Shown: positions 8,548 through 15,099 of the stretch, piece by piece
Position numbering within the stretch: the first letter of the stretch is position 1
How the letters are laid out: every line of letters begins with the position of its first letter
Virus record (IMG/VR): IMGVR_UViG_3300045988_066620
Span: 1 to 36,509 of that record
Strand: one strand, 5' to 3'
Origin: a virus
DNA: 36,509 nt
The notes under the pieces: model-generated
What the model was told of the DNA's origin: nothing
Databases searched by the model: none
The model's input: only the letters and a program-made list of their open reading frames with translations
Made by a program: the position numbers and the translations under genes

Positions 8548-8570
8548 ATATATAGTAGGAGGTGATAAGA

Positions 8571-8900
8571 ATGTTTGACAACCGCCTAAAAAAACTGAGA
8601 ATGGCGAAAAACCTCACACAAGAGGAAGTTGCAAAAGCCTTAGGCTTGCCGAAAACAACCTACTGCAACTACGAACGTGATGAGAGAGAGCCGTCAGCAA
8701 TGACACTTTTGAAGATCTCAGCATACTTTGGCGTGTCTCTCGATTATCTTTGCGGAAACGAGGGCGAAAAAAATTCCCCGCCACCACAAAGTGACGAGGA
8801 AGCCAAGATTATCGACGCATTAAAGGTTCTTGAAGATAGCGAAATCAAAGACCTTGACAAATATGTCGATTTTCTCCTATTCAAGAGAGGGCTGCTTTAA
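8571..8900 (+). CDS. CI-like XRE-family repressor (109 aa, no S24 peptidase domain)
   Basis: ATG at 8571 is 8 nt after AGGAGG. HTH pattern LKKLRMAKNLTQEEVAKALGLPKTTYCNYE. Confidence 0.8.
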   Translation: MFDNRLKKLRMAKNLTQEEVAKALGLPKTTYCNYERDEREPSAMTLLKISAYFGVSLDYLCGNEGEKNSPPPQSDEEAKIIDALKVLEDSEIKDLDKYVDFLLFKRGLL

Positions 8901-9258: not shown

Positions 9259-9459
9259 TTATTTGTTAAAACTGAACAAATCGTCAAGACCGCATTTTAG
9301 CGATTTTGCCAATAGCACAGCCGTTGAAATGCGTGGGTCAACGTTATAGCGTTCTATCTGGTCAATTTCAGAAAAACTAACGCCTGACAGTTCGGATAGC
9401 TGGCGCAGTGTCAAACGTTGTGTGCGACGTATATCACGCAGATGTGTTTCGTATATCAT
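9259..9459 (-). CDS. XRE-family HTH protein (66 aa)
   Basis: LRDIRRTQRLTLRQLSELSGVSFSEIDQIE HTH pattern. AGAGGTG RBS 8 nt upstream. Confidence 0.75.
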   Translation of the reverse strand: MIYETHLRDIRRTQRLTLRQLSELSGVSFSEIDQIERYNVDPRISTAVLLAKSLKCGLDDLFSFNK

Positions 9460-9460
9460 A

Positions 9461-9506
9461 TATAATCACCTCTGTGGCTAGTATGCCCACAGGAGCCGTG
9501 ATTATA
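9461..9506. promoter_or_regulatory. 46-bp imperfect palindrome between divergent genes (candidate operator)
   Basis: TATAATCAC (9461..9469) and GTGATTATA (9498..9506) form a perfect 9-bp inverted repeat. Inner arms are CTCTGTGG / CCACAGGAG. It covers the RBS of the 66-aa HTH gene. Confidence 0.5.
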
Positions 9507-9524
9507 AGAAAAGGGGTAGAAAAC

Positions 9525-10382
9525 ATGGGATTCCGTTTTAGAAAATCAATCAAACTTGGCGGCGGTGCAAGATTAAACATCGGCAAAAAATCTGTCGGCA
9601 TGAGTGTCGGCGGAAAGGGCGCACGATACAGTGTCAACAGTTCAGGACGGCGCACAAAGTCTGTCGGTATACCAGGCACAGGGCTGTCATATGTATCAAC
9701 ATCTGGCGGCAGGAAATCGTCCAGCCGTAGGTCTCACGGCCGCAAAGCAAGTGGCACGTCAAAGGGCGGTTGCCTGCTGGTAATAATCATTTTCTGTGCT
9801 ATATCAGTTATAGTCTACGGAATAGCGCACCTATTCGGCTATAGGCGGCCGACAAAGGTTGAATGGACTAATGACAACTATTCTATCGCACTGAACGATT
9901 ATAATCGTGACTATAGCCACATAATCTATTTGCGAATCACAGGTGAAACCGACGCAGAGGGCGTTGATCCGAAAGATATAAAAATTGAAATCAGCAATCC
10001 TGACGTTTGTCAGTTAGAATATGATGATAGCGGTGCATATGTCACCTATGATGTGAAACCCCTGAAAGACGGCTTTGCGGACGTGACCGCCACATATGAC
10101 GGTGTGACATCAGACCCTATCACAATCACAGTGGATATGGGTGAAAAAGTCACTACTACCACCACGACAACAACTACTACCACGACGACGACAACCACCA
10201 CCGAAGCAATCCCTGCGACAACTACCACGCAGGACCCAGCAGAAACAATTGTATATATCACGGCTTCGGGCGACAAGTATCATAACAAATACTGCAGATA
10301 CTATGATGATACCTGCACACCAATGACCCTGCAGGACGCCCAGAACGCAGGCTACAAGCCTTGCAAGGTGTGCGGCGGATAA
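9525..10382 (+). CDS. DUF4236-domain membrane protein with an Ig-like domain, a poly-Thr linker and a C-terminal Cys/His metal-binding motif (285 aa)
   Basis: ATG at 9525 after AAGGGG. MGFRFRKSIKLGGGARLNIGKK... matches the DUF4236 pattern. TM helix CLLVIIIFCAISVIVYGIAHLF. 17 consecutive Thr codons at 10152..10202. C-terminal YITASGDKYHNKYCRYY...GYKPCKVCG. Confidence 0.75.
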   Translation: MGFRFRKSIKLGGGARLNIGKKSVGMSVGGKGARYSVNSSGRRTKSVGIPGTGLSYVSTSGGRKSSSRRSHGRKASGTSKGGCLLVIIIFCAISVIVYGIAHLFGYRRPTKVEWTNDNYSIALNDYNRDYSHIIYLRITGETDAEGVDPKDIKIEISNPDVCQLEYDDSGAYVTYDVKPLKDGFADVTATYDGVTSDPITITVDMGEKVTTTTTTTTTTTTTTTTTEAIPATTTTQDPAETIVYITASGDKYHNKYCRYYDDTCTPMTLQDAQNAGYKPCKVCGG

Positions 10383-10532: not shown

Positions 10533-11582
10533 ATGGCAACAGCGAAGAAATTACCAAGCGGAAGTTATCGTGTGAGAGTGTACGATAAAAACACCGGTAA
10601 ATACAAATCTTTCACGGCCGAAACGAAAAAAGCCGCCGAGCTTGCGGCGGCGGAATGGCTGATAAAATGTCAGGACGAAGAAAACCAGCAAATAACATTC
10701 CAGACCGCAGCTGAAGAATATATCAAAATAAAAACGCCTGTGCTATCACCCACCACGATACACGGCTATCAGACTATCCTGCGTAACAATGTTGACAGGT
10801 TGAAAGATATTCCAATTGATGAGGTTACGCCGCAGCTAGTGCAGGACTGGGTAAACGGTTTGACCGTTGAAAAATCGCCGAAAACTGTTCATAACATCTA
10901 TGGTTTTTTTACAGCTGTTATGTCATACTATGACGTGGATATACGGTTAGGAAAAATTCGTTTGCCACCCAAAACAAAAAAATTTAAAATTCTGCCTGAT
11001 GTTGAAACCGTAGTGGGCCTGTTCCGTGGGTCAGATATAGAAATCCCTGTGCTGTTGGCTGTATGGGGCGGTATGCGTATGTCGGAAATACTGGGTATCC
11101 GCCGCAAGGACCTATGCGGTGATGTGTTGACACTGTCGCAGGTGCGTGTCACAGTTGGTAAGGAAATAATTGACAAAGAGCAGGCTAAGACCTACAACAG
11201 TCGCCGACAGCTACGGCTAGGGCAGCCGATAGTAAATCTAATAGACAGCCTAAACCTGCAACCCGATGATTATGTTGTGACCTACACCCGAAAACAGGTG
11301 TACGGCCGTTTCGTCAAAGCAATGCGATCGGCAGGCTATCAGATCACATTTCACGATCTACGCCACATCAACGCCAGCGTTATGGCGAAACTAAATGTTC
11401 CTGATGTATACGCTATGGAACGTGGCGGCTGGAGCAACACCAGCACATTGAAATCGGTATATCAGCAAACGTTTGACACAGACCGCCAGCGTATTGACCA
11501 AACCATTGATAACTATTTTCAGGACATATATGACACGAAATGTGACATGAAAAATATAAAACAGCGTAAAAACGTAGTTTGA
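10533..11582 (+). CDS. int: Tyrosine site-specific integrase
   Basis: N-terminal arm-binding-type KKLPSGSYRVRVYD. Catalytic-domain signatures GMRMSEILG, HDLRH and ERGGWS...Y. AGGAGG RBS. Confidence 0.9.
   Translation: MATAKKLPSGSYRVRVYDKNTGKYKSFTAETKKAAELAAAEWLIKCQDEENQQITFQTAAEEYIKIKTPVLSPTTIHGYQTILRNNVDRLKDIPIDEVTPQLVQDWVNGLTVEKSPKTVHNIYGFFTAVMSYYDVDIRLGKIRLPPKTKKFKILPDVETVVGLFRGSDIEIPVLLAVWGGMRMSEILGIRRKDLCGDVLTLSQVRVTVGKEIIDKEQAKTYNSRRQLRLGQPIVNLIDSLNLQPDDYVVTYTRKQVYGRFVKAMRSAGYQITFHDLRHINASVMAKLNVPDVYAMERGGWSNTSTLKSVYQQTFDTDRQRIDQTIDNYFQDIYDTKCDMKNIKQRKNVV
11526..11547 (+). repeat. Arm-type repeat, copy 1 (atatatgacacgaaatGtgaca), inside the int 3' end
   Basis: 21/22 identity with 11730..11751; the two copies flank the tRNA-like core. 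Confidence 0.6.
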
Positions 11583-11591
11583 ATAACTTTT

Positions 11592-11622
11592 GCCGTGGGT
11601 TCAAGTCCCGTCACCTCGACCA
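11592..11622 (+). other. attP core candidate: 3' fragment of a tRNA gene (T-arm + acceptor 3' strand + CCA)
   Basis: gccGTGGGTTCAAGTCCCGTCACCTCGACCA contains a canonical TTCAAGT T-loop flanked by GGG/CCC, then a 7-nt acceptor strand, A73 and CCA. No matching 5' acceptor strand lies upstream, so this is a fragment and not a gene. Implied C1:G72 plus A73 is tRNA-Pro-like (weak). Confidence 0.6.
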
Positions 11623-11729
11623 GTAAAAAACCGTTTGTTTGCGTCAAATGACGTAGATAGGCGGTTTTCTTTATGCCCTAAAATGCTAAAATATGCGTAG
11701 AAATGATAAAATATCATTCAAAATGATAA

Positions 11730-11751
11730 ATATATGACACGAAATATGACA
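11730..11751 (+). repeat. Arm-type repeat, copy 2 (atatatgacacgaaatAtgaca)
   Basis: 21/22 identity with 11526..11547. Adjacent aaatgataaa(a)tat direct repeats at 11701 and 11721. Confidence 0.6.
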
Positions 11752-11835
11752 CAGAATTTTGCACACACTGAAATTTTGTTCTGAAAATATGCACAAAAGG
11801 CAAGTCTATATTTGTGCAATCCTACAAAATTCAAT

Positions 11836-11892
11836 GTTATCTATATTTTTGTTATCTAACTACTTGACATTTGCTAGATAACATGGTATACT
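11836..11892 (+). promoter_or_regulatory. Promoter (TTGACA 11864..11869 - 17 nt - TATACT 11887..11892) with three GTTATCTA operator-like boxes
   Basis: GTTATCTA at 11836 and 11851. The inverted copy TAGATAAC at 11875 lies inside the promoter spacer. Confidence 0.6.
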
Positions 11893-11952
11893 ATAATCAC
11901 AGGCAAGAGATGAGACCTGAAATCAAAAATTAATTTTCGGAGGTACAAAATC

Positions 11953-12204
11953 ATGAAAATCACAGGCGTAAAAAAAGCAGTAGGAACTTTTAAGAGAGCT
12001 AATGAGGGCGGCTTCTATCGTTCAACAATGGGTGTGTTGATGGTTGATTGCTCAACAGGTTATGTATGGTGTGACGAATTAACATGTGACTCTTGGGTCA
12101 ACTACGAAGATAAGAATATCGCTTACTTGGAATGGGACGGGGAAGCCACTATGAAGAACATCAAGGCGGCAGCCGAAAGAATGTGCGCAGAACATATCGC
12201 ATAA
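11953..12204 (+). CDS. Hypothetical protein (83 aa), first gene of the att-proximal accessory operon
   Basis: GGAGG RBS 9 nt upstream. I recognise no family. Confidence 0.7.
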   Translation: MKITGVKKAVGTFKRANEGGFYRSTMGVLMVDCSTGYVWCDELTCDSWVNYEDKNIAYLEWDGEATMKNIKAAAERMCAEHIA

Positions 12205-12293
12205 ACAGCCCTGACGAGTATCTGAAAATTGATACGAAACGCCCGAAAGGGCGTCGGCTGGAAAGCAAAATAAATCTGAAAGGAACTGATAAC

Positions 12294-13001
12294 ATGAGTA
12301 ATTTGAAAAACATGAGAGAAGCAAGAGGCATGACACAAGATGAGCTGGCAAAGAGGATAGGTTCTGTTAGAAGCTATATCTGCCGTCTGGAAAGCGGTGC
12401 GCAGGATATCAATTTTATCCAGGCGAGCACACTGGGACGTCTATGCACGGCACTAGACTGCAAACCAGAAGATTTGCTGGAAGCCGATAGTTTTGAATTT
12501 GAGGAGATCAACGGCGAAAAGCGATTGATAGTTGATGGGCTGTATAGCCCCGAAGGCAACTATTTGCTGGTAAAAATCAAGAACCGCACATATCAGCTGA
12601 ACATGATTGATTTTTCAAACGTCAATGATGTATCAAAATATCTGATACCACGTGGAAATGTCAATGTCCCACGAAGCGCAGTGGAATTTGACAAAAAAGC
12701 ATACTGGATATATAAAATGGCACCACGTGACGGCGTGGAAGTCAAAGTCCTCGACCCTATCAATCCAGAGGATTGGAAGGTGCTAGTTGAAAAACTAGGG
12801 CTGACCGATGATGATATTTCGGATGAATTTGAGGTTGTCAAAGGTAAGAACTATGGTGAAAAGTGTGAGAAGCACTATATTTGCAGACAGATCAGACTTA
12901 CCGGTCCAAAAAATTCGGTTACAATCGAACGAGAACTGAAAAAGCACGGCATAGAAGCAACAAATGTAAATATCGACCGCATAAACATCAGGGTAAAATG
13001 A
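12294..13001 (+). CDS. XRE-HTH fused to a ~165-aa domain of unknown function (235 aa)
   Basis: ATG at 12294 after GAAAGGA. HTH pattern NMREARGMTQDELAKRIGSVRSYICRLESG. The C-terminal domain is unrecognised. The stop is coupled to the next start (TGAcATG). Confidence 0.75.
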   Translation: MSNLKNMREARGMTQDELAKRIGSVRSYICRLESGAQDINFIQASTLGRLCTALDCKPEDLLEADSFEFEEINGEKRLIVDGLYSPEGNYLLVKIKNRTYQLNMIDFSNVNDVSKYLIPRGNVNVPRSAVEFDKKAYWIYKMAPRDGVEVKVLDPINPEDWKVLVEKLGLTDDDISDEFEVVKGKNYGEKCEKHYICRQIRLTGPKNSVTIERELKKHGIEATNVNIDRINIRVK

Positions 13002-13002
13002 C

Positions 13003-13977
13003 ATGGCAAAACAAAAATACGAATTGCTGCCAGACAAAGTAGTAGCAGCCAACATAGAAACCATAAAAGCCATAGGACATATCGCAACCGATACCGATAT
13101 AGTGGACTATGTCAGCGGTCAGCTGATGCGTGACTATATCAAAATCGGTAAGAAGACACTAGACGAAGCCGCCAAGCTGACCGAACAAACGATAATGTCA
13201 GATGATTTTTTAGACAAGCTGGGGGCTATAAAAAATATGACAAACTGGTACTATAGTGGACGGCAAGTGTATCTATTTGATGATGATTTTGCAGATTTGC
13301 TCAGCGGTCAAGGCACAGCCGATTTGAAAATCAGCGCAGACGTTTTCAAACAATTGCCGTGTAACTGTTTTTATGTCCAGCGAAAATACAAAAATAGCGT
13401 GGGGTTTTTCTTCGATTTGCAGGGCGACCGAATGACAATGACAGAATATTTTTTTGACGATGCTGAAAAAGACTACTATTCGGAATCAATCGCTATAGAA
13501 TTGCAGTATGATATGACAGTTGAAGAACTGATATATAAAATTCTAGGCAGCTATGCCAAAAAAGACAAGGCAGGCACTAAGGCAATGATATGCGACATAG
13601 CCGAAAAATTGCAGTTCATTGTCTACCTATCAGCCGTAAACGCTGAAATCACACCTGTCACGAAACGACAGGCACAGAAGGAGACCGCCGCACAACATCC
13701 ACAGAAGCCGTCTGCACAGCCCCAAAAATCAGCCGTAGCAAATGTAGGATACCGCATAGGAATTGCTGTGCGCAAGCACAGACAGGCTGAAAGCAGTGTC
13801 AGCTACCAGCACAGTGCACAAGGTCACAGCGCACCGAAAGCACCGCACATCAGACGTGCGCATTTTCACGGATACCATACCAACAACGGCTATAAGGTGA
13901 AATGGCTGAATACGATTTTTGTAAACGCTGAACGTGACGACGGAGATATCAGTACCGTTCACAAGGTTCTGCAATAA
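13003..13977 (+). CDS. Hypothetical protein (324 aa), unknown function
   Basis: Translationally coupled to the upstream gene. Globular N-terminal part, a Q/P/A-rich linker, and a basic His-rich C-terminal motif HIRRAHFHGYHTNNGYKVKWLNTIFV. Confidence 0.75.
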   Translation: MAKQKYELLPDKVVAANIETIKAIGHIATDTDIVDYVSGQLMRDYIKIGKKTLDEAAKLTEQTIMSDDFLDKLGAIKNMTNWYYSGRQVYLFDDDFADLLSGQGTADLKISADVFKQLPCNCFYVQRKYKNSVGFFFDLQGDRMTMTEYFFDDAEKDYYSESIAIELQYDMTVEELIYKILGSYAKKDKAGTKAMICDIAEKLQFIVYLSAVNAEITPVTKRQAQKETAAQHPQKPSAQPQKSAVANVGYRIGIAVRKHRQAESSVSYQHSAQGHSAPKAPHIRRAHFHGYHTNNGYKVKWLNTIFVNAERDDGDISTVHKVLQ

Positions 13978-13991
13978 CTGCGTATCGCAAT

Positions 13992-14025
13992 AAAAAAAGC
14001 CGCCAGGGCAAACGCTCTGACGGCT
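13992..14025 (-). terminator. Intrinsic terminator at the convergence of the lysis operon and the accessory operon
   Basis: The minus strand reads AGCCGTCAGagcgtttgccCTGGCGGCT followed by TTTTTTT. The plus-strand reading has only a weak T-tract. Confidence 0.65.
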
Positions 14026-14059: not shown

Positions 14060-14719
14060 CTATTTCTTGATTTTTTCACGCAGTTTCTTGATGAATTTCT
14101 TGCCTGCAATGCCGTTCTGCTTGTAGCCCCACGCTTTCAGCCGTGCGTTGATAGCGGATACAGTGCCCTTGCCAATGACGGCATTATCGTCCAGCTTTGC
14201 ACCATCAAGGATTAGCAACTGTTTCAGGGCATACGACCCGTCTGTGCTTGCGCCTTTCTTATAGCCCTTGGCGTCAAGTGCGGGCGGATTGATAGCGTTC
14301 TGATTTTTCGGACGCAGAACGCCAAGAACATGGTTGTAATTGTGTTTGATTTTTGTACATGGATCGTTCCTGCCTGTCCAGTTCTGATCGTAGCTGTAGA
14401 AATATTTTGTGTTGCCTTCGCCTGTGGCTATGGCAACGTGACCGATACCGCCGTTCAAACTGCCGCCCCATACCACGATGTCACCCTTTTTCGGCACAAA
14501 CGACAGAGTGTTCTTTATTCTGGTAAAATAGCCCTTGACCGCCTGCCTGTCGAAATCTTCGTAAATCTGCCTAGCATACAGACCTGTGAACATACCGCAG
14601 CCGATAACATCACGGTTGTACTGGTTTGCCAGGTCAAAGCACTGTACATTATATGCTTTGTCAAAATCAATGCCCTTGCCTTTGTACTTTTTTACGAACT
14701 CGTCAAATGTCATTGCCAT
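14060..14719 (-). CDS. Endolysin: N-terminal CHAP amidase/peptidase + C-terminal peptidoglycan-binding-like domain
   Basis: Catalytic Cys context YNVQCFDLANQY and His context GIGHVAIA. The C-terminal IGKGTVSAINARLKAWGY resembles PG_binding_1. Follows the holin gene. Confidence 0.8.
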   Translation of the reverse strand: MAMTFDEFVKKYKGKGIDFDKAYNVQCFDLANQYNRDVIGCGMFTGLYARQIYEDFDRQAVKGYFTRIKNTLSFVPKKGDIVVWGGSLNGGIGHVAIATGEGNTKYFYSYDQNWTGRNDPCTKIKHNYNHVLGVLRPKNQNAINPPALDAKGYKKGASTDGSYALKQLLILDGAKLDDNAVIGKGTVSAINARLKAWGYKQNGIAGKKFIKKLREKIKK

Positions 14720-14721
14720 AG

Positions 14722-15099
14722 TTAGTCCTCCTTATCTTTAAAAACTCCGAATTTTTCCACAATCTTGTTTATCCAGTGCGCCTGTGGATTTATTTCACCA
14801 TAGTTTTCCAGTATGGAAACTATCTCCATGGCAAAAATATATCCGAAAACAACTAGTGCAGTTATAGTGCCTGCAATGCCTGCCAGCTCGCTGTGTCCGT
14901 AGTAGTGACCTAGCTGTTCAAAACCTATTTCCGAACCGATAGCCACGCCCATGACAACTATTTCGGCTAGTTTGTTCAGACCACCCTTGCGCATTTTCGA
15001 TGAACGGACGTCGCCTTTGCAATAGGCTTTTATCCAGCCTGTGGCAAAATCAGCCAGTGCAAGACCTATCACGATTATCAGCATGATTATGTATTTCAC
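14722..15099 (-). CDS. Holin (Phage_holin_4_1 / TcdE-like family)
   Basis: LALADFATGWIKAYCKGDVRSSKMRKGGLNKLAEIVV pattern and three hydrophobic segments. Lies directly upstream of the endolysin. GTG start overlaps the XkdX stop. Confidence 0.8.
   Translation of the reverse strand: MKYIIMLIIVIGLALADFATGWIKAYCKGDVRSSKMRKGGLNKLAEIVVMGVAIGSEIGFEQLGHYYGHSELAGIAGTITALVVFGYIFAMEIVSILENYGEINPQAHWINKIVEKFGVFKDKED

Follow-up and report, generated by a model that had tools for sequence, protein, structure and literature searches.

A predicted AcrVA2/FinQ-family effector gene in a probably autoregulated accessory operon of a temperate Ruminococcus phage

The operon and its AcrVA2-like gene

We analysed the 36,509-nt viral DNA of IMG/VR virus record IMGVR_UViG_3300045988_066620 (positions 1 to 36,509; hereafter the window), a temperate siphovirus-like genome, and in particular the three plus-strand genes, here called g1, g2 and g3, that lie between its phage attachment site (attP) and its lysis module. 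A first-pass annotation, made from the sequence alone, had described them as a compact operon for proteins of 83, 235 and 324 amino acids (aa), the second with a helix-turn-helix (HTH) domain, and all three are present where it had placed them (Table 1), convergent, as it had also said, with the minus-strand genes of a CHAP endolysin and a holin. The operon resembles the rest of the phage in GC content (43.4% versus 43.8% overall). The host is taken to be a human-gut Ruminococcus, because a sister prophage with the same operon adjoins a Ruminococcus bicirculans glycoside hydrolase gene. With a probability of about 0.7 we read the locus as a self-regulated accessory operon that a temperate Ruminococcus phage carries, with g3 as its AcrVA2/FinQ-family effector, and that would serve counter-defence or conflict. 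The other loci with which the window was compared are designated below by L numbers.

Table 1. Positions in the window of the operon, its control elements and the features around it.
Feature	Position	Strand	Remarks
HTH_3 protein	8562-8900	+	112 aa; plus-strand lysogeny module
DUF4236 protein	9408-10382		324 aa; just upstream of int
Tyrosine integrase (int)	10533-11582		Pfam Phage_integrase
attP core	11592-11622	+	identical to the tRNA-Pro(CGG) 3' end (T-loop, acceptor strand, CCA)
Hairpin, then T-run	11627-11675	+	after the tRNA fragment; inverted-repeat arms 11627-11646 and 11649-11668, then TTTTCTTT
Promoter-upstream module	11790-11833	+	TGCACAAA-N13-TTTGTGCAA-N3-TACAAAA; once in the window
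Operator boxes (predicted)	11835-43, 11850-58, 11875-83	+, +, -	exact copies of TGTTATCTA
Sigma-70-type promoter	11864-11892	+	TTGACA (11864)-17 nt-TATACT (11892); TG-extended -10
g1	11953-12204	+	83 aa; acidic, isoelectric point 5.3
Structured g1-g2 intergenic RNA	12206-12260	+	minimum free energy -23.6 kcal/mol; z = -3.6 versus shuffled sequences
GNRA hairpin	12239-12254	+	ACGCCC-GAAA-GGGCGT; part of the 12206-12260 fold
g2	12294-13001	+	235 aa; XRE-HTH (residues 1-62) and ~170-aa C-terminal domain
g3	13003-13977	+	324 aa; HxRxxH motif (H282, R284, H287)
Hairpin between the convergent g3 and endolysin genes	13998-14025		GCCGcCAGGGC-AAAC-GCUCUGaCGGC; A7 before, AAAUUU after
CHAP endolysin	14060-14719	-	lysis module
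Holin	14722-15099	-	lysis module

The first-pass annotation had recognised no known family in the operon and had called its function unknown, which was wrong for g3. By the Pfam assignments of its homologues, by a profile search of the PDB, by Foldseek and by a tblastn match to finQ, this protein is, as judged from sequence comparison, a member of the AcrVA2/FinQ family. Precisely, homologues that share 90-95% identity with g3, and the corresponding genes of related loci, have a precomputed match to Pfam PF26125 ('AcrVA2-like'); the assignment is made via these homologues, and the Pfam scan of g3 itself was empty because the scanned Pfam set contained no PF26125 model. AcrVA2 (the anti-CRISPR of a Moraxella bovoculi prophage; 7CI1, 7CI2) was the only significant match of g3 in the PDB, by sequence and by structure. 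Used as a single sequence, g3 found AcrVA2 (7ci1) as the sole phmmer match (E = 1e-5), a profile of 27 g3 homologues found it at E = 2.4e-15, and hhalign aligned g3 residues 165-310 with AcrVA2 residues 174-318 (98.5% probability). The AlphaFold model of g3 has a predicted local distance difference test score (pLDDT) of 69, with residues 1-215 modelled well and residues 216-313 poorly; with this model, Foldseek returned 7ci2_A, 7ci1_B and 7ci1_A as the only PDB matches with E < 1e-3 (probability 1.0; template modelling (TM) scores 0.32-0.37). Against plasmids, tblastn aligned g3 residues 82-310 with a gene annotated 'protein finQ' (E = 6e-5, about 24% identity). In PHROGs, g3 falls in phrog_6160 (6.5e-20), whose function is unassigned in that database.

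The basic, His-rich motif that the first-pass annotation had seen near the C-terminus of g3 corresponds to the HxRxxH motif of AcrVA2. The AcrVA2 sequence was recovered from an alignment with its orthologue in Moraxella phage Mcat1, and the numbering was checked by counting: H286, R288 and H291 of AcrVA2 align with H282, R284 and H287 of g3 (PHIRRGH versus HIRRAH), and the three g3 residues are invariant in the 27-member family alignment (A1). According to the preprint of Marino et al. (10.1101/2022.11.29.518452), the three AcrVA2 residues are required for the downregulation of Cas12a mRNA and protein, and AcrVA2 is the first bacterial protein reported to destroy an mRNA once it has recognised the nascent polypeptide that this mRNA encodes. 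The same text describes AcrVA2 homologues as widespread on mobile elements, typically without Cas12a, and counts the fertility inhibitor FinQ among them; within the family the HxR motif is conserved, the C-terminal domain is alike and the N-terminus is divergent (10.1101/2022.11.29.518452). The g3 protein matches this published pattern, since its similarity to AcrVA2 is C-terminal and its divergence N-terminal.

Both g3 and AcrVA2 (324 and about 322 aa) are encoded by prophages near an att end, and they have in common the C-terminal PHIRRxHxHxYW...VKW..FVN module, HxRxxH included. They differ in that the N-terminal ~165 residues of g3 do not align at profile level, in that the host of g3 is a Gram-positive gut Ruminococcus, and in that g3 is translationally coupled to an upstream gene for an HTH protein with a C-terminal domain, under a promoter with operator boxes. 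By eye, AcrVA2 'GIYQLDEE' can be set against g3 'QVYLFDDD', in which case D89 of AcrVA2 falls on the invariant D93 of g3 and W82 of g3 is one position off W79; no profile or BLAST alignment to AcrVA2 spans this W82/D93 region, and the finQ alignment starts at residue 82.

FinQ, which is responsible for fertility inhibition on IncI/F-like plasmids, is placed in the same family as g3 by its HxR motif and similar C-terminal domain (10.1101/2022.11.29.518452). As for g3, it is carried by one mobile element and possibly acts on another; it differs in its low identity to g3, in being plasmid-borne in Enterobacteria and in targeting F tra expression. We know of no partner of FinQ that combines an HTH with a C-terminal domain like that of g2.

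PADLOC, run on the three proteins as the first-pass annotation had proposed, matched no defence family: it gave nothing for g1, only HTH models for g2 (HTH_VI, control protein, capH and the RmrA N-terminus, over residues 2-65) and a weak 'HEase' (homing endonuclease) match for g3. The latter covers g3 residues 148-225 around QFIVYLSAVNAEI (E = 3.8e-4, 75 of 316 model positions), and no other library agrees with it. Together with TadF and DUF126 from the Pfam and NCBIfam scans, we rejected it as noise, these matches being sub-threshold, partial and uncorroborated.

The HTH protein, its operator boxes and the g1 slot

The second gene encodes, as had been proposed, an XRE-type HTH domain fused to a domain that resembles nothing in the family libraries: residues 3-64 of g2 match Pfam HTH_26, HTH_31 and HTH_3 (E 1e-10 to 1e-8), and the remaining ~170 aa have no match in Pfam, PHROGs, PADLOC or NCBIfam. 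In the AF2 model (pLDDT 86) this C-terminal domain is confidently modelled and beta-rich. Foldseek against the PDB and BFVD matched g2 only to HTH controller or repressor proteins, and these matches are dominated by the HTH; the closest, by sequence as well as by structure, are CapH, SinR, P22 c2 and the controller proteins of restriction-modification systems. For the C-terminal domain, neither phmmer nor a 28-sequence profile found anything in the PDB, and Pfam annotates only HTH domains on the members of its family. An exhaustive HMMER search of 1.84 billion representatives gave about 80 clusters of this family, with HTH-fused forms of ~232-249 aa and stand-alone forms of ~163 aa; in L025 a stand-alone protein follows a separate small HTH gene.

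Upstream of g1 the operon has its own promoter, which the first-pass annotation had called consensus-like and which agrees with the consensus at 11 of 12 positions; it was the best site in the region in a promoter scan, and promoter and 5' untranslated region (5'UTR) are conserved in all related loci. The repeated boxes that had been noticed around it are three exact copies of TGTTATCTA, the only ones in the 36.5-kb window (about 0.3 expected by chance), all within 49 bp. They are spaced by 15 and 25 bp from start to start, in mixed orientation, and the third lies inside the -35/-10 spacer, where one box had indeed been reported. All three are invariant in 11 related loci, in which the bases between the -35 element and box 3 vary. 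The exact search of the whole window placed no TGTTATCTA box near the gene of the DUF4236 protein or that of the 112-aa HTH_3 protein, which is probably the phage repressor.

The box also travels with g2 homologues. In L026, which belongs to another phage that has other cargo and lacks an AcrVA2-like gene, a g2 homologue 36% identical over the C-terminal domain has a promoter with TATTATCTA 5 nt upstream of the -35 element, at the offset of box 2 in the window, and an exact TGTTATCTA in the spacer. The g2 homologues of L019 and L020, which are closer or equally distant, have differing recognition helices and other repeats at their own promoters, as expected of co-evolving repressor-operator pairs. 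Since the boxes are unique to the promoter, invariant in 11 loci and present again at the promoter of the L026 homologue, g2 is predicted to be the regulator of the operon, most likely an autorepressor that would bind these boxes in the manner of an anti-CRISPR-associated (Aca) protein.

The layout is indeed that of acr-aca operons, in which likewise a strong promoter is overlapped by repeats, the HTH gene lies in the operon of the counter-defence gene (here with one base between the stop codon of g2 and the ATG of g3), and a variable small cargo gene stands upstream of the more conserved regulator. It differs from them in three mixed-orientation boxes instead of one or two palindromes and in an HTH gene that precedes the AcrVA2-like gene instead of being last in the operon. 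Moreover, g2 carries the extra 170-aa domain and has only generic XRE-HTH matches in family scans; it is likened to Aca proteins by its layout. The C proteins of restriction-modification systems (C.AhdI, C.BclI), the best sequence and structure matches of the g2 HTH, are autoregulatory as well, binding to repeats that overlap the promoter of their own gene. They are stand-alone HTH dimers of ~75 aa, and the locus has no restriction-modification genes.

The first gene behaves as an exchangeable, hyper-variable slot for small cargo. The g1 protein matched no family in Pfam, NCBIfam, PADLOC or PHROGs and nothing in the PDB, and its homologues form 6 clusters confined to close relatives. In four loci (L031, L089, L108, L122) g1 is 67-68% identical to that of the window, with int, promoter, g2 and g3 93-100% identical (g2 and g3 themselves 93-96%), and the variable part is the centre of the protein. 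A 144-aa open reading frame (ORF) replaces g1 in L069 (13125-13559), and an ORF of 144 aa precedes an 84-aa g1 copy in L001 (4500-4934); the exchanges leave promoter and 5'UTR in place up to the ATG and the intergenic region from the stop codon on. In L019 and L023, the small proteins encoded at the corresponding place are not related to g1. A small acidic product such as g1 fits an anti-defence protein, which its size and charge do not demonstrate.

Between g1 and g2, the GNRA hairpin described in the first-pass annotation is present, within a larger predicted fold. Its sequence is invariant across the three loci aligned there (with L001 and L002 compared). It was rejected as a canonical terminator, as no U-tract follows it.

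A further conserved element, TGCACAAA-N13/14-TTTGTGCAA-N3/4-TACAAAA, stands ~30 nt upstream of the -35 element, here and in unrelated loci. Elsewhere this upstream module stands before strong promoters of the form TTGACA-17-TATAAT, which belong to unrelated accessory or regulatory cassettes of different Clostridia phages and each of which has its own cassette-specific repeats. Copies were found at L005:1247, L009:5005, L010:1668, L031:1707, L020:876 and 2511, L017:2197, L019:267, L011:5808(-), L015:8215, L044:4393 and L095:3593. The module could be a site for a shared host or phage factor, or a recombination linker at cassette boundaries.

In sister phages we also observed an extra unit downstream of g3 (L009:5005-5485, L010:1668-2148, L031:~1707), which the window lacks. 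It consists of a 54-aa ORF and a gene for an HTH protein of 58 aa, has a promoter and ACGTCATTGA repeats of its own, and resembles an acr-aca pair.

Related loci, function and alternative explanations

Genes like g2 and g3 are found together well outside the close relatives. Two loci, L023 and L024, encode a g2 homologue with 41% identity in the C-terminal domain, whose gene runs into the start of an AcrVA2-like gene only 27% identical to g3; because these pairs are deeply diverged, the pairing is older than the lineage of this phage. AcrVA2-like genes also occur with other HTH proteins (L012-14, L015, L017). In L017, for instance, an unrelated 168-aa HTH protein overlaps the start of another AcrVA2-like gene, and the HTH partners in L012 and L017 have no C-terminal domain in common with g2. 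In L015 and L016 we further noticed a distant AcrVA2-like gene directly downstream of a 463-aa ORF (L015:2252-3643, L016:2186-3577) with a weak match to the TnpB-like Pfam family Cas12f1-like_TNB, and with a convergent double-HTH gene on the other side.

Such pairs raise the question of a toxin-antitoxin or abortive-infection system, in which g3 would be an mRNA-destroying toxin and g2 its XRE antitoxin, repressing the operon and neutralising g3 through the C-terminal domain. An HTH gene lies upstream of the larger gene and is translationally coupled to it in three lineages, the g2 C-terminal domain accompanies AcrVA2-like genes across deep divergence, and that domain also exists alone beside a separate small HTH gene, all of which would suit an antitoxin. 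We nevertheless consider this explanation very unlikely, as several of the sampled AcrVA2-like genes have no adjacent HTH partner (L011, L005, Mcat1, JCL1032), g2-like genes occur with unrelated cargo, and no toxin or toxin-antitoxin family beyond generic HTH was matched in Pfam, PADLOC or NCBIfam. AcrVA2 has reportedly been expressed alone in a heterologous host in studies that did not report toxicity, which also counts against this explanation. The passages of the preprint on in vivo assays of this kind make no comment on toxicity.

The position of the operon recurs too. Several unrelated phages have an AcrVA2-like gene at the prophage edge or in the interval from the lysis module to att/int: Ruminococcus prophages, other Clostridia phages (L011-14, L017), Lactobacillus phage JCL1032 (ORF32, between the endolysin and the mapped attP) and Moraxella phage Mcat1 (1.7 kb from attL). 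Recurrence of homologues at prophage ends, which the first-pass annotation had proposed to check, is observed for the AcrVA2-like gene. As a separate observation, L017 contains a distant prophage whose insertion at tRNA-Pro(CGG) was read from the sequence by eye (L017:1940-2010); its operon, for proteins of 236 and 122 aa, the 168-aa HTH protein and the AcrVA2-like protein, adjoins the tRNA and runs convergently to an M23 endolysin gene.

Two closely related phages lack most of the operon. With respect to the window, L095 is without 11833-13796 (junction 11832 / 13797) and L074 without 11788-13819 (junction 11787 / 13820), so that each deletion of ~2 kb removes the promoter, g1, g2 and ~80% of g3 (its first ~265-272 codons); the junctions flank the upstream module, one just after and the other just before it. 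Since two independent natural deletions exist, the cassette is dispensable.

An ordinary role in lysogeny, as excisionase or recombination directionality factor, antirepressor or immunity repressor, would be suggested by the neighbourhood of int and attP and by the presence of an HTH protein. Such homology, which the first-pass annotation had named as what would overturn its view of the operon as accessory, was looked for, and no Xis, recombination directionality factor or antirepressor family was matched in Pfam, PHROGs or NCBIfam. The phage has a separate 112-aa HTH_3 gene in its lysogeny module, the TGTTATCTA box occurs nowhere else in its genome, and close relatives have lost the whole cassette twice. 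We consider this role effectively excluded.

For the accessory operon that we propose, the mechanism by analogy with AcrVA2 would be the following. The diverged N-terminal two-thirds of g3 would recognise a single, specific target protein, probably while this is still a nascent chain, and the conserved C-terminal PHIRRxHFH...VKW..FV module would then bring about the loss of the mRNA of that target, switching its synthesis off. The target could be an immune effector of the host, as for AcrVA2, or a protein of a rival mobile element, as for FinQ; within the counter-defence or conflict reading we consider the host-immunity target somewhat more likely. It is probably not Cas12a, because the N-terminal half of g3 is diverged. 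AcrVA2 binds the N-terminal polypeptide of Cas12a, and an inactive AcrVA2 mutant reportedly trapped Cas12a. The XRE-HTH of g2 is expected to bind the three TGTTATCTA boxes, which bracket the -35 element and fill the spacer, and to repress the operon in an Aca-like way, so that the very strong promoter would give a burst of expression that g2 then throttles. Alongside this regulator and this effector, g1 would be exchangeable cargo.

The first-pass annotation had proposed a defence or exclusion cassette. Its placing of the operon among conflict genes stands, and the assignment to defence is not supported, given that PADLOC matched no defence family and that AcrVA2 is a counter-defence protein; exclusion survives as an alternative through FinQ. 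In that case g3, acting like FinQ, would abort the expression of a protein of a superinfecting phage or plasmid in the lysogen, which would thereby be protected. FinQ is a family member that inhibits F-plasmid transfer and lowers tra mRNA, and AcrVA2 homologues are found mostly where Cas12a is absent, according to the same source (10.1101/2022.11.29.518452). The match of g3 to a finQ gene and the location of the operon at the prophage edge beside a tRNA, which is a moron position, point in the same direction. On the other hand, besides the absence of a PADLOC match, the sole family member dissected mechanistically serves counter-defence, and a strong promoter with a built-in autorepressor is classical acr-aca logic. 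On balance we regard exclusion or defence as doubtful, though worth keeping in view.

Several points also weigh against the reading of the operon that we prefer. At profile level only the C-terminal ~45% of g3 aligns with AcrVA2; the conserved C-terminal module is of low confidence in the model of g3 (pLDDT < 50), and the TM-scores to 7ci1 and 7ci2 are just 0.32-0.37. The biochemical mechanism of AcrVA2 itself is not settled, and its source is a preprint. The geometry of the three TGTTATCTA boxes is unusual for a simple HTH dimer. Finally, the association of the two genes is not strict: there are g2-like genes without an AcrVA2-like gene, which have unrelated cargo in L020 and L026 and no cargo in L019, and AcrVA2-like genes are found without an adjacent HTH gene in L011, Mcat1 and JCL1032, and in L005 with an HTH gene 2.2 kb away.

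As to the target, R. bicirculans is the reference organism for CRISPR subtype VI-D in a review table (PMC8036902), and with such a reference host a CRISPR target other than Cas12a is conceivable, which is pure speculation. A more specific version of it would make the g2 C-terminal domain a dedicated sensor, chaperone or inhibitor for AcrVA2-like effectors, and the operon a self-regulated nascent-chain silencing module directed at a non-Cas12a effector, for example Cas13d; we regard this as a long shot. If it were true, a Cas13d-type target would make g3 the first inhibitor of the AcrVA2 class that acts on another defence system and would provide a handle on N-terminal retargeting.

Much of this is already published, namely the AcrVA2 family and its wide occurrence on mobile elements that lack Cas12a, as well as acr-aca logic. 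Modestly new are the recurrent HTH partner with its C-terminal domain and accompanying operator, the exchangeable first gene and the upstream module common to many cassettes. What the AcrVA2 homologues target on elements that never meet Cas12a is described as an open question in the preprint (10.1101/2022.11.29.518452). The locus reveals no new kind of system. It is a compact, naturally regulated example of the family from a Firmicute that is abundant in the human gut, and its promoter and operator are clear; as it also has a co-evolving HTH partner, deletion variants in nature and allelic swaps of cargo, it could be used as a test case in the search for non-Cas12a targets and for the regulation of the family.

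Attachment site and flanking elements

The 25-mer 11598-11622 of the attP core was matched in more than 120 metagenome contigs, and in 85 of 123 metagenome matches it lies inside a tRNA-Pro(CGG) called by ARAGORN, as the 3' end of the tRNA. In the window ARAGORN called no tRNA, since it contains no more than the 3' part of one. Integrated copies are homologous to the window from 11592 on. Three loci (L031, L069, L122) have the attL arrangement, a complete tRNA-Pro(CGG) with the operon immediately after it, so that the position beside the reconstituted tRNA, which had been predicted for the integrated phage, is directly seen. The attP arrangement (int, core, operon) is found in L089 and L108, and the attR arrangement (int, core, bacterial genes) in L114. 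An Rfam match to a tmRNA 3' end (11400-11622) was sub-threshold (17.7 bits versus a gathering score of 47) and was rejected, the fragment being the 3' end of tRNA-Pro(CGG). When the operon DNA was compared with 50,697 phage records, only a 37-nt tRNA-like core matched, and no isolate phage among them has the operon.

On both sides of the attP core there are copies of a 22-nt direct repeat, ATATATGACACGAAAT(G/A)TGACA, at 11526-11547, 11730-11751 and 11742-11763, and the 3' end of int contains one of them; another tandem repeat, of a 20-mer, lies at 11672-11711. These repeats are probably arm-type sites of the integrase. The hairpin with its T-run that follows the tRNA fragment is likely to act as terminator of the reconstituted tRNA gene, and the hairpin between g3 and the endolysin gene as a bidirectional terminator.

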